Source of the DNA: an uncultured Candidatus Saccharibacteria bacterium
Lineage (GTDB): Bacteria > Patescibacteriota > Minisyncoccia > Phycocordibacterales > UBA918
NCBI GenBank assembly: GCA_964611205.1
Contig: CAZSZB010000002.1
Coordinates: forward strand, 74,609-138,608
Reading direction: 5' to 3'
Length of the DNA stretch: 64,000 nt
A program made the translations under genes and the position numbers. Positions 31,196 through 33,345 of the stretch are shown piece by piece. The notes below the pieces were generated by a model that saw nothing but the letters and a program-made list of their open reading frames with translations, had not been told where the DNA came from and searched no databases. The first letter of the stretch is position 1; each line of letters opens with the position of its first letter.

Positions 31196-31432
31196 CTATA
31201 ACTACTAGAAAAACAGTACTCTTGTTGAAATACGGCTATAATTAGCCCTGAAATCAGTAGTTTTAGTTTGACTTTTAGTCATTTGTGTGCTATCATTAAT
31301 AGAAGTGGCACCCGCTCCCCTTTTCGGTGTATTCTCGACGAGAATTAATCGAAAAGTGGCGGGATGAGTCATGAAATGTAACGGATTCGCTTCCCTAAAT
31401 GGGTTCGAATCTATTGAAATAGGAGGTCAGAA

Positions 31433-32698
31433 ATGACCAATACACCGAAAAGGATCAGCTTCGACCGTGACGACAAGAACTTCACGGTACGGGACTGGCT
31501 GGAGACTGAGATAGCCTACTACGAAGATCTGATCGAGAGAAAAGAGAGCAGCTATGAAACCACAACTGTTTCAGAGTGGCTTTTCTGGACCATCAGTGCA
31601 GTGGTTGTTGTTATACTCTTCTTCCTGGCCGGCGTAACCATGTTCACGAACTGGCTTTTGCCACCTGTGGCAGAAGTTTACGGTGTGGCCCTCAACCCAC
31701 AGTGGCTTGTGCTTGTTCTAATCTTCATCTATCTGGCCGCAGGATTACGTCAGATAGACACCAGTGAAGTAGCCGGATTGGACTTTGCAGGGAAACCTGT
31801 ACTACAACTCGGCAACGGACTAAAATGGTACCCTTGGTTGCTTTTCAAACTTTCCATCGAGACAGTTCACCTCACACAAGGAGAATTGCCTGGAGATGCT
31901 GACCGTATCTTCTGGGGCGAAGAGGAGGAGGAGATGCCGTCTGGCATGGTCCGTCCCATATTCGTTCTTTCAGGTGAAAACCCGAGAGGTGGATTACCTT
32001 CCGACAAACAGATCAATCTGGGTGTATCGATGTTGGTAAAAGTAAAGATTATTCAGGATCGATTCTTTGACCTGATAATCAATATCGCGCCAGTAGACGA
32101 AAAAAACGGGCAGATGATCCGTGACACCATCACGGGTAACCAGTCCGTCACGCCCAGGCTGCTTGAAGTCCTGCGTCACCTGCGTGACACCAGCAGCGCT
32201 TTCGCTTCTGCTCTTGTTGGCAAACTGTCTTACAATGAGATCACCCATAACCGTGCTCTGGTAGACGAACTTTACCATCTGCGGGTCAAGTTGGAAGTGC
32301 TTGACTGGGGACTTGATTTGAAGGAAGCTCGCTTCACGAAATTCAACCCTGGCCACACCTACAACAGCGATTTGCAGAAAAGAAGCACGGCGGCTTCCGA
32401 ACGTGACGCAACCATCATGCAAGCTGAGGGTAAGAGAAAAGCCCTCATGTTGGAAGGTGAGGGCGAAGCAAGTAAACGGAGAAAATTTCTCCAAGCAGAA
32501 GCGGAGGGCCAGCAAGCCATTCGTGATGCTTTGGAGATAAGTGGTGACACCGTGATCGCTGCCGAAGTCGGCAAAGAAATCGCCAAGGGCGGAAACGCTG
32601 TGATTGCCGATGGTATTGGTGGTCTCGGAGCTTTGTTTGCCGCTGGTACTGAAAAGTTCAAGAAAACAAAAAAGGGAGACTCGGCTGACACCGAGTAG
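31433..32698 (+). CDS. SPFH/band-7 (stomatin/HflKC-like) membrane protein on a high-GC island
   Basis: Two N-terminal TM helices, then the SPFH core, then a C-terminal QAEGKRKALMLEGEGEASKRRKFLQAEAEGQQAIRDA coiled-coil typical of band-7 proteins. A strong SD (AGGAGG) precedes the ATG. GC is clearly higher than the flanks. Confidence 0.55.
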   Translation: MTNTPKRISFDRDDKNFTVRDWLETEIAYYEDLIERKESSYETTTVSEWLFWTISAVVVVILFFLAGVTMFTNWLLPPVAEVYGVALNPQWLVLVLIFIYLAAGLRQIDTSEVAGLDFAGKPVLQLGNGLKWYPWLLFKLSIETVHLTQGELPGDADRIFWGEEEEEMPSGMVRPIFVLSGENPRGGLPSDKQINLGVSMLVKVKIIQDRFFDLIINIAPVDEKNGQMIRDTITGNQSVTPRLLEVLRHLRDTSSAFASALVGKLSYNEITHNRALVDELYHLRVKLEVLDWGLDLKEARFTKFNPGHTYNSDLQKRSTAASERDATIMQAEGKRKALMLEGEGEASKRRKFLQAEAEGQQAIRDALEISGDTVIAAEVGKEIAKGGNAVIADGIGGLGALFAAGTEKFKKTKKGDSADTE

Positions 32699-32704
32699 AC
32701 AAAG

Positions 32705-33280
32705 ATGAACCAACAAGTTGCAAACCAAAACACTATGTCGGGAATCGTTGTCATAGTGGTGCTGGCTATTGTCGTCATCGCTATTGCCAGATGGTTTCCC
32801 AGACGAAAATCTCGTTCAATAACGATGCTTACGACAGAGTCGGGCGAGAAAACAGTGGCTAGCGCACCAAGGTGGAAGCCGACATCCTGGCCGCCGACTG
32901 GTATGCTAGTCACGATCCTCATTGGTTCAATGGTCGGGATGTTGGTTTGGGTTTTCTGGCCTGAGGTCAATCTCTACCGTCAAGGGGTATGGGCCGAGGG
33001 ACAAAGTACCCTTCGTTGTAGTTCCGAGCCGAAAACCGAAGTGCTTGACGCAACGAATCCCACGGCAGAATACTATTACTGCCCAGGGATGATGTGGGAC
33101 CTACACCGAGGTAGGGGCGGAATACTGTTGGCGTCAGCCAACCGGGGGGCCCTCCTCAGATTTGAAGAAGGGCCGATTTCCTTCTTCAACTCTGTTGACC
33201 ACGGAGTCACAGTCATCAACCTCAAATGGATAGGTGGCGACCCCGTTCCTATCATTCTCTCCTACATACCCAGTAGATGA
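32705..33280 (+). CDS. hypothetical membrane protein (2 TM), high-GC, co-transcribed with the SPFH gene
   Basis: 191 aa with TM helices GIVVIVVLAIVVIAIA and GMLVTILIGSMVGMLVWVFW. It starts 7 nt after the SPFH stop. Confidence 0.45.
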   Translation: MNQQVANQNTMSGIVVIVVLAIVVIAIARWFPRRKSRSITMLTTESGEKTVASAPRWKPTSWPPTGMLVTILIGSMVGMLVWVFWPEVNLYRQGVWAEGQSTLRCSSEPKTEVLDATNPTAEYYYCPGMMWDLHRGRGGILLASANRGALLRFEEGPISFFNSVDHGVTVINLKWIGGDPVPIILSYIPSR

Positions 33281-33295
33281 GGAATGAGACGCAAA

Positions 33296-33345
33296 TGCCC
33301 CATCCGGCCAATCTTGGTCGGGTGGGGTTTCTTTTTATATAAAAT
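33296..33345. terminator. bidirectional terminator between the high-GC island and the pilin-like cluster
   Basis: CCCCATCCGGCC-aatctt-GGTCGGGTGGGG followed by TTTCTTTTT. Confidence 0.5.

Follow-up and report, generated by a model that had tools for sequence, protein, structure and literature searches.

An SPFH protein cassette in a conserved, variable and GC-rich chromosomal slot of Paceibacteria

Genes for SPFH proteins are commonly found in operons with a small membrane partner; they are frequently transferred horizontally, and such pairs are reported to move together (PMC2636767). In NfeD partners, hydrophobic helices at the N terminus precede an all-beta domain of OB fold at the C terminus (PMC2636767), and the QmcA-YbbJ pair forms a cage of 26 heterodimers protruding into the cytoplasm, as described in a passage of PMC13086221 that cites Tan et al. 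2024. We analyzed a two-gene cassette located at positions 31300-33345 of a 64-kb window, the complete 64,000-nucleotide (nt) stretch of contig CAZSZB010000002.1 studied here. Its first gene encodes an SPFH protein of 421 amino acids (aa) and its second a membrane partner of 191 aa. An earlier note on this DNA had taken the pair for a horizontally acquired membrane-organisation or defence module. We find that the cassette fills a slot that is occupied in all relatives spanning it, that cassettes of this slot appear to have been replaced laterally between lineages, and that the elevated GC content is a property of the whole cassette family.

The cassette resembles the known SPFH-NfeD operons (QmcA/YbbK-YbbJ, FloT/YuaG-YuaF, FloA-NfeD, PH1511-PH1510) in the tight linkage of an SPFH gene to a small membrane partner, in a partner that combines N-terminal hydrophobic segments with a C-terminal domain of beta propensity, and in having stomatin and QmcA as the best matches of its SPFH protein. 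It differs from them in that the SPFH protein contains two N-terminal hydrophobic segments (three in relatives) and in that its partner lacks detectable NfeD sequence similarity. The partner further differs in having two transmembrane helices here and a greater length in relatives, and its cysteine pairs suggest an extracytoplasmic domain, whereas the QmcA-YbbJ cage protrudes into the cytoplasm.

The two proteins and their transcription unit

Searched alone, the SPFH protein matches Band_7 (PF01145) with E = 4.2e-4 and 20.8 bits, under the cut-off of 23.6, and only eight relatives, 47-59% identical, are found among 5.8 billion proteins. The profile of this close family matches prohibitin, flotillin and QmcA at about 1e-3. 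Much stronger matches are obtained with a slot-family profile made from 43 SPFH proteins encoded at the same chromosomal slot: stomatin is matched with E = 2.7e-17, PH stomatin with 1.9e-16, QmcA with 5.4e-14, and HflK/C and prohibitin at 1e-9 to 1e-12; flotillin is matched too, and 33 of the 43 proteins match Band_7 individually. Judged by homology, the first gene thus encodes a divergent SPFH (stomatin/QmcA-like) membrane protein, and the SPFH/band-7 assignment of the earlier note, sub-threshold for the single protein, is firm at the family level with the 43-member profile. The protein starts with a helix, continues with hydrophobic segments at about residues 49-76 and 91-105, the SPFH domain and a long, predicted EA-rich helix (307-367), and ends in a G/A-rich segment. 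The motif IDTSEVAGLDFAGKPV..GNGLKW, which follows the hydrophobic segments, looks by eye like the usual start of an SPFH domain. As in the HflK/HflC-FtsH and prohibitin cages, to which the profile matches extend, the SPFH domain precedes a coiled-coil helix; unlike HflK/HflC-FtsH, the cassette has a single SPFH gene without an adjacent FtsH, and its best matches are of the stomatin type.

The partner is predicted to contain two transmembrane (TM) helices, as the earlier note had proposed. TM1 (about residues 10-30) is followed by a loop (31-63) with 8 Arg/Lys and 2 Glu, by TM2 (about 64-88), and by a C-terminal domain of roughly 100 aa that has beta propensity and contains 2 Cys. In a word-indexed database of 5.8 billion proteins it matches only itself, and a full HMMER scan of 1.84 billion representatives yields three weak relatives, one of which is probably a low-complexity artefact. 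To judge from these searches, the partner is a near-orphan that evolves extremely fast. Across the related loci described below, the downstream gene lies -4 to +14 nt from the SPFH gene in most cases, and its product shares a common architecture of an N-terminal TM segment, a low-complexity linker, further TM segments and a C-terminal domain. Partners in relatives are longer, reaching about 390 aa, and have both a P/A/T-rich linker and cysteine pairs that are conserved; the C-terminal domains inspected all have an even number of cysteines, in a proteome that is cysteine-poor.

A hidden Markov model (HMM) iterated on the C-terminal domain of the window's partner stalled at two loci, L012 and L002 (loci are cited by our own numbers). 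L012 has two separate open reading frames (ORFs) downstream of the SPFH gene; the N terminus of the window's partner matches the first of them, and the C-terminal domain of the window's partner matches the second. The first downstream ORFs of L012 and L002 share an MNQ start with the window's gene, which supports the ATG at 32705. In the closest relatives the partner takes the form of two overlapping ORFs (L012 2977-3839; L002 9455-10464; L010 3609-4774), which encode a multi-TM protein with a P/A-rich linker, followed by a small anchored domain that bears a cysteine pair. The 191-aa partner is a single, shortened ORF, in which the N terminus of the first is joined to the C-terminal domain of the second.

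The NfeD-type pairing suggested earlier found no support. None of 50 slot partners shows similarity to NfeD (PF01957) at E <= 0.1, the window's partner has no match in the PDB at E <= 10, and profiles of two partner subfamilies match no NfeD, YbbJ or YuaF chain there at the same threshold.

The cassette is one transcription unit, comprising a promoter, a 5' untranslated region (UTR), an AGGAGG Shine-Dalgarno sequence, the two genes and a terminator (Table 1). The TTGAC and TGCTAT elements of the promoter are invariant in an alignment of five related loci. The Shine-Dalgarno sequence is as strong as the earlier note had it, and the two same-strand genes are indeed tightly linked, separated by 6 nt (32699-32704) rather than 7. 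The terminator, which points toward the 3' end of the pilin gene converging on it, does have a GC-rich stem, but its bidirectionality finds no support: the T-run is found on the forward strand only, and a terminator scan reports none on the reverse strand. Two long overlapping antisense ORFs exist as noted before; they are most likely spurious by-products of the high GC content, because the sense frames carry the SPFH-family homology.

The arms of a perfect 15-nt inverted repeat (31319-31333 and 31439-31453) would base-pair the 5' UTR with SPFH codons 3-7, and the end of the Shine-Dalgarno sequence and the AUG are covered by a small hairpin (GGUCA-GAAA-UGACC) inside this repeat. The predicted fold of the UTR region has an energy of -51.4 kcal/mol (z = -3.0). 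This pairing may serve translational control; it shows no obvious conservation in relatives, and an Rfam search of the 5' UTR matched no family.

A conserved slot with exchanged cassettes

The cassette lies between trhO, from which it diverges, and a convergent cluster of T4SS_pilin-like genes that is followed by a gene for a solute-binding protein (SBP). We compared this region in 80 trhO-anchored loci from species-representative genomes whose records are titled Paceibacteria, Kaiserbacteria, Nomurabacteria or Parcubacteria. All loci that encode a close homolog have the order trhO (-), SPFH gene (+), partner or partners (+), pilin-like genes (-), SBP gene, methyltransferase (MT) gene and gyrA; the order is the same in L001, L002, L003, L010 and L012, trhO is 62-80% identical in the related loci, and the block is conserved nearly everywhere in the 80 loci. 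An iterated HMM finds exactly one SPFH gene per locus in 45 loci, in 42 of which it adjoins and diverges from trhO. Considering the 52 Paceibacteria species genomes that span the region from SBP to trhO, all 52 have the slot filled by a module on the opposite strand, and at least 34 of these modules contain a recognisable SPFH gene. The slot of L031 seemed empty owing to an ORF-calling error in GC-rich DNA; an SPFH match is present there. Seven further genomes probably encode another SPFH type (hhalign 90% over 54 columns, and an SPFH N-terminal motif by eye). About 7-9 genomes have a first gene that encodes a soluble protein without SPFH similarity, of 260-350 aa in about seven of them (L027 5068-6835, L078 4787-6831 and five similar loci); the partner in these loci still has several TM helices and, at the C terminus, a domain that carries a cysteine pair. 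The module's constant element may thus be the partner and not the SPFH gene. On contig CAXRCZ010000007.1 the trhO block is present twice, inverted near the two ends (L086 1694-16617; L087 110100-125023), which points to a large inverted duplication or else to an artefact of assembly.

The earlier note had the cassette inserted between trhO and the pilin cluster. Since the slot is occupied in all 52 loci that span it, and conserved orthologs are found in the same context, which the note itself had named as refuting evidence, it is not an insertion; its GC content is atypical (see below).

The contents of the slot are highly variable. Its SPFH proteins fall into at least 4-5 types that can barely be aligned with one another and that are distributed as a mosaic relative to the flanks; in most genomes, the nearest neighbour by SBP identity has a different SPFH type. 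L048 and L057, for example, have trhO proteins that are 88.5% and SBPs that are 85.9% identical, and their SPFH proteins give no BLAST alignment. The SPFH protein of L048 instead shares 47% identity with that of L067 (SBP 60%), and the SPFH protein of L057 shares 53% with its counterparts in L045 and L083 (SBP 42%). Likewise, L001 and L083 have flanks that are 82% identical and SPFH proteins of different types. L001 carries the window's type (51-58% identity), though its SBP is only 40-41% identical to those of the window group, and in L044 and L067 the cassette is also incongruent with the flanks.

The homology breaks coincide with the edges of the cassette. In blastn comparisons, L048 and L057 are homologous over the methyltransferase and SBP genes, every pilin gene and the 3' portion of the partner gene; the homology is then lost at L048 position 5024 and found again from 6793, some 35 nt before the start codon of the SPFH gene. 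For L001 and L083 the break is at L001 8079-10337, which corresponds to the SPFH gene and the partner. Because highly identical flanks hold SPFH genes that cannot be aligned, with homology breaking at the cassette edges, these comparisons indicate that cassettes have been replaced laterally at a fixed slot between lineages. The alternative that an ancestral multi-copy array lost its copies differentially is unlikely: no locus has two SPFH genes, and flanks of 86-88% identity already differ in type, which leaves replacement as the economical explanation.

For the window's own cassette the comparisons give no sign of recent transfer. It shares 59% identity with the L012 cassette and 56% with the L002 cassette, with flanks that are 63-80% identical and follow the same rank order, and thus appears congruent with the flanks of its nearest relatives. 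Every conspecific contig that spans the slot (at least 7 samples) carries the cassette with at least 99.8% nucleotide identity, and the segment compared in ENA assembly ERZ27247346 (contig k141_743972) is identical to positions 30119-36784 of the window. What survives of the claimed horizontal acquisition is that lateral transfer acts on the locus, in the form of cassette replacement; the window's cassette itself has diverged from its nearest relatives as far as its flanks have. In the conspecific contigs (L004, L005, L102-L107), two pilin-like genes in 33750-34912 are called with 127, 123 or 118 aa and with 148, 144 or 132 aa, at a nucleotide identity of at least 99.7%. The cause is probably start-codon calling or small indels close to the 5' ends.

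Replacement-type flexible genomic islands, such as O-antigen and other surface-structure loci, hold cassettes that are very divergent or even unrelated at the same site between conserved flanks. Our locus behaves as such a replacement-type variable island rather than as an insertion, with a fixed slot, conserved flanks, exchanged contents, sharp homology breaks and atypical composition. It differs in that the variation is seen between species-level genomes and not between strains, the sampled conspecific population being invariant, and in that the cargo is a two-gene membrane-scaffold module and not a glycosylation cluster.

Table 1. Positions of the cassette's elements and of other features mentioned in the text, in window coordinates
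Feature	Position	Strand	Basis or remark
Sigma-70-like promoter, TTGACT-17-TATCAT with TG extension	31268..31296	+	10/12 consensus matches
Predicted 5' UTR, about 130 nt	31300..31432	+	sequence
Shine-Dalgarno sequence AGGAGG	31421-31426	+	6 nt ahead of the ATG at 31433
SPFH gene, 421 aa	31433..32698	+	ORF list, profile homology
Partner gene, 191 aa	32705..33280	+	ORF list
Intrinsic terminator, 14-bp GC-rich hairpin (9 GC pairs, 33297-33328), then TTCTTTTTAT	33297..33338	+	T-run
Overlapping antisense ORFs, 31994-32728 and 32359-32970 (244 and 203 aa)	31994..32970	-	ORF list
trhO (UPF0176/rhodanese), conserved left flank, divergent from the cassette	30119..31195	-	Pfam
Four T4SS_pilin-like (PF18895) small membrane proteins, then SBP; right flank, convergent	33360..36209	-	Pfam
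Duplicate of tRNA-Leu(taa) 3' end and its terminator	30064..30114	+	repeat, 92% over 51 nt to 29901-29951
5' halves of tRNA-Leu, three in number and with a hairpin after each	28647-28710, 28720-28783, 29725-29788		
tRNA-Leu(tag) 3'-end fragments	28980-29003; 29023-29054		second is a 100% copy of 28894-28925
tRNA-Lys 3'-end fragment	29200-29222		
Inverted repeat, 76 nt	29108-29183 / 29961-30036		80% complementary
S21-like gene, likely highly expressed	44599-44865		N-terminal sequence and synteny
S1-like gene, likely highly expressed	40824-41948		N-terminal sequence and synteny
IF-2-like gene, likely highly expressed	26604-28151		N-terminal sequence and synteny
FtsZ-like gene, likely highly expressed	46856-48091		N-terminal sequence and synteny

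Possible roles of the module

The account that we favor, with moderate confidence, is that an SPFH scaffold and its cognate membrane partner occupy a slot that is fixed in Paceibacteria, always filled and hypervariable, that cassettes are exchanged there, and that the GC excess stems from an ongoing force or from a pool of cassettes. The gene structure, the SPFH homology, the conserved slot, the cassette replacement and the family-wide GC excess are directly supported by the comparisons presented here. By analogy with the described cages, the SPFH protein would assemble as an oligomeric ring or cage at the cytoplasmic side of the membrane, where it would enclose or organise the transmembrane segments of the partner. 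Tight and conserved linkage, as in SPFH-NfeD pairs, suggests that the partner is a client or a co-assembling subunit of the SPFH protein. The positive-inside rule and the conserved even number of cysteines would place the partner's C-terminal domain, with its cysteine pair, outside the cytoplasm and the SPFH domain inside. The exchange of cassettes presumably proceeds via homologous recombination in the conserved flanks.

Several points weigh against this account. The physical pairing of the two proteins is deduced from gene linkage, and the topology from the positive-inside rule and cysteine counts. With no detectable NfeD similarity, the analogy to SPFH-NfeD pairs comes down to operon position and gross architecture. 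An AlphaFold2 model of the SPFH protein, calculated from an alignment of 8 sequences, is of low confidence (mean predicted local distance difference test score, pLDDT, 51.7) and gives no confirmation at the level of the fold. For the partner, modeled from the single sequence, the TM helices reach pLDDT values of about 75-82, and the C-terminal 100 residues stay below 50 with scattered strands. The loci with a soluble first gene indicate that SPFH is not obligatory in the slot. Finally, the SPFH gene has a higher GC content than its trhO, SBP and MT flanks in 40, and the partner gene in 42, of 44 genomes that are phylogenetically related, so these counts do not represent independent events.

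The hypervariable contents and the exchange of cassettes suggest selection acting from outside the cell; the searches described below gave no positive evidence for defence. A more specific and rather doubtful version of our account is an allele-like, laterally exchanged cassette of SPFH protein and receptor. Here, the outward domain of the partner would be under diversifying selection by phages or by the host cells to which these episymbionts attach, the SPFH cage would couple this surface domain to the membrane, and the GC excess would be the footprint of GC-biased gene conversion, with recombination unusually frequent at this single locus.

A role as accessory scaffold of the neighbouring T4SS-pilin-like apparatus would be compatible with the account favored above, and we hold it to be similarly doubtful. 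In such an arrangement, an SPFH ring would organise pilin assembly and the variability would track the surface structure. The PF18895 cluster adjoins the cassette in all loci spanning the block, and a passage of PMC8656257 connects the secretion systems of Agrobacterium with SPFH proteins and detergent-resistant membranes. However, the cassette forms a transcription unit apart from the pilin genes and convergent with them, has a promoter and a terminator of its own, and shows a GC excess that the pilin genes lack. The pilins also stay similar when the SPFH gene is replaced, as seen from the DNA homology of L048 and L057 over the whole pilin cluster, and in some genomes pilin genes are found on both sides of the cassette.

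We consider it improbable that the cassette is an anti-phage defence or exclusion module that acts at the membrane, is kept at a hotspot and is diversified by an arms race with phages. Cassette types do replace one another between conserved core flanks, and the partner evolves extremely fast and probably has an outward-facing domain. The locus also shares with defence-island hotspots a variable cargo between core genes beside a tRNA region; it differs from them in its near-uniform cargo architecture, the absence of known defence domains and a slot that is never empty. The defence module of the earlier note finds no match in PADLOC-DB v2, where neither window protein hits any family at E <= 1, and the 43 slot SPFH proteins give only three unrelated single-member matches at E of about 0.005. 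There is no recognisable effector domain (nuclease, NTPase or protease), presence is universal and not patchy, the flanks are housekeeping genes with no other defence genes nearby, no relative was found on viral contigs, and a literature search turned up no SPFH-based defence system. Searches of the window proteins against PHROGs and NCBIfam returned nothing meaningful, and a metagenome scan for relatives recovered only an already known locus.

Base composition, age and significance of the cassette

The 2 kb that the earlier note described as visibly GC-rich are so by calculation. Positions 31300-33345 have 50.0% GC, compared with a mean of 40.6% (sd 2.0, maximum 46.3) for the other 2,046-bp windows (z = 4.65), and are the highest-GC stretch of this length in the 64-kb window. 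GC content at third codon positions (GC3) is 0.55 in the SPFH gene and 0.56 in the partner gene, with a window mean of 0.35, and four-fold sites of the cassette genes have a GC fraction of 0.48 vs 0.29 elsewhere. Amino-acid composition was ruled out as the source of the excess: it is ordinary in both genes, and the excess is found at synonymous sites. The rise in GC begins at about 31300, the predicted transcript start, and stops at the terminator.

Relatives show the same offset. In the 44 genomes introduced above, the mean excess is +4.8 points GC for the SPFH gene and +6.6 for the partner (+8.8 and +12 points GC3), the window's cassette being near the upper end with +10.5 and +12.5 points; the pilin genes show no such excess. 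The pair has 61-64% GC on a 52% background in L001 and 51-54% on 44% in L002, and the offset is kept across genomic backgrounds of 40% to 52% GC. The GC excess is thus a synonymous-site property of the whole cassette family and not a mark of recent arrival. Synonymous sites should be saturated at 50-60% protein identity; together with the stable offset, this suggests a force that still acts at this locus, or else a shared, GC-richer pool of cassettes that continually re-supplies it. Because recombining bacterial genes tend toward higher GC3 (PMC4450053), a reasonable candidate for the cause would be a recombination hotspot with GC-biased gene conversion.

Translational selection in a highly expressed operon, as an alternative to recombination or foreign origin for the cause of the GC excess alone, seems unlikely to us. 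It would fit the strong preference for C in two-fold pyrimidine-ending codons (a fraction of 0.72 in the cassette vs 0.34 elsewhere), the near-consensus promoter with its extended -10 element and the perfect AGGAGG sequence. However, G-ending codons and four-fold sites are shifted as well, and the enrichment includes the non-coding ends of the unit, with 45% GC in the 5' UTR vs 31% in the 104 nt just upstream and a GC-enriched 3' end. The S21-, S1-, IF-2- and FtsZ-like genes of the window, which are likely highly expressed, have a genome-like GC3 of 0.30-0.33, and these ordinary values and the enriched UTRs make expression-linked codon selection unlikely. The other island with the same signature, at 15050-16326, codes for accessory proteins.

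That island has a four-fold GC of 0.53 and a C fraction of 0.69 among pyrimidine-ending codons. Its two products are a protein of 199 aa that resembles nucleoside 2-deoxyribosyltransferases and a small secreted protein (141 aa) with an N-terminal hydrophobic segment. Beside it lie a T4SS_pilin-like gene (13921-14385) and a gene for a 1960-aa protein with weak cell-wall-hydrolase and M23 matches.

The tRNA cluster at 28640-30115 is full of partial tRNA copies (Table 1), which look like scars of repeated integration and excision, or of a small element targeting tRNA 3' ends. The cassette does not abut the tRNA-Leu(taa) 3' duplicate, as had been stated: the duplicate adjoins the 3' end of trhO, and trhO separates it from the cassette by about 1.2 kb. 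The duplicate was ruled out as an att site of the cassette, because trhO lies in between. A repeat analysis found no direct or other repeats flanking 31300-33345, and the ORF list of the window contains no integrase-like ORF.

A recently acquired, foreign 2-kb island between trhO and the pilin cluster, with its high GC as a donor signature, could draw on the strongly atypical GC and synonymous codon usage, on the second island and on the nearby tRNA duplications, but it is largely refuted and very improbable, given 52 of 52 occupied slots, a cassette no younger than its flanks, a donor signature that should have faded by synonymous saturation at 56-59% identity, the same GC offset in genomes of 40-52% GC, the lack of an integrase or flanking repeats and of an adjoining tRNA duplicate, and the presence of the cassette in every conspecific contig that spans the slot.

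The wider lesson for genome scans is that an island that stands out by its composition need not be a recent insertion; it can be a feature that a gene family keeps stably across a lineage. SPFH scaffolds are usually seen as slowly evolving, housekeeping organisers of membranes. Here, an SPFH scaffold sits at a class-wide fixed position in candidate-phyla bacteria with reduced genomes and yet behaves in the manner of a hypervariable surface locus; such a class-wide, position-fixed, hypervariable and GC-elevated cassette is more unusual than the acquired island originally claimed. If its variability reflects interaction with phages or host cells, the slot would provide a tractable marker locus for specificity in organisms that have not yet been cultured alone.

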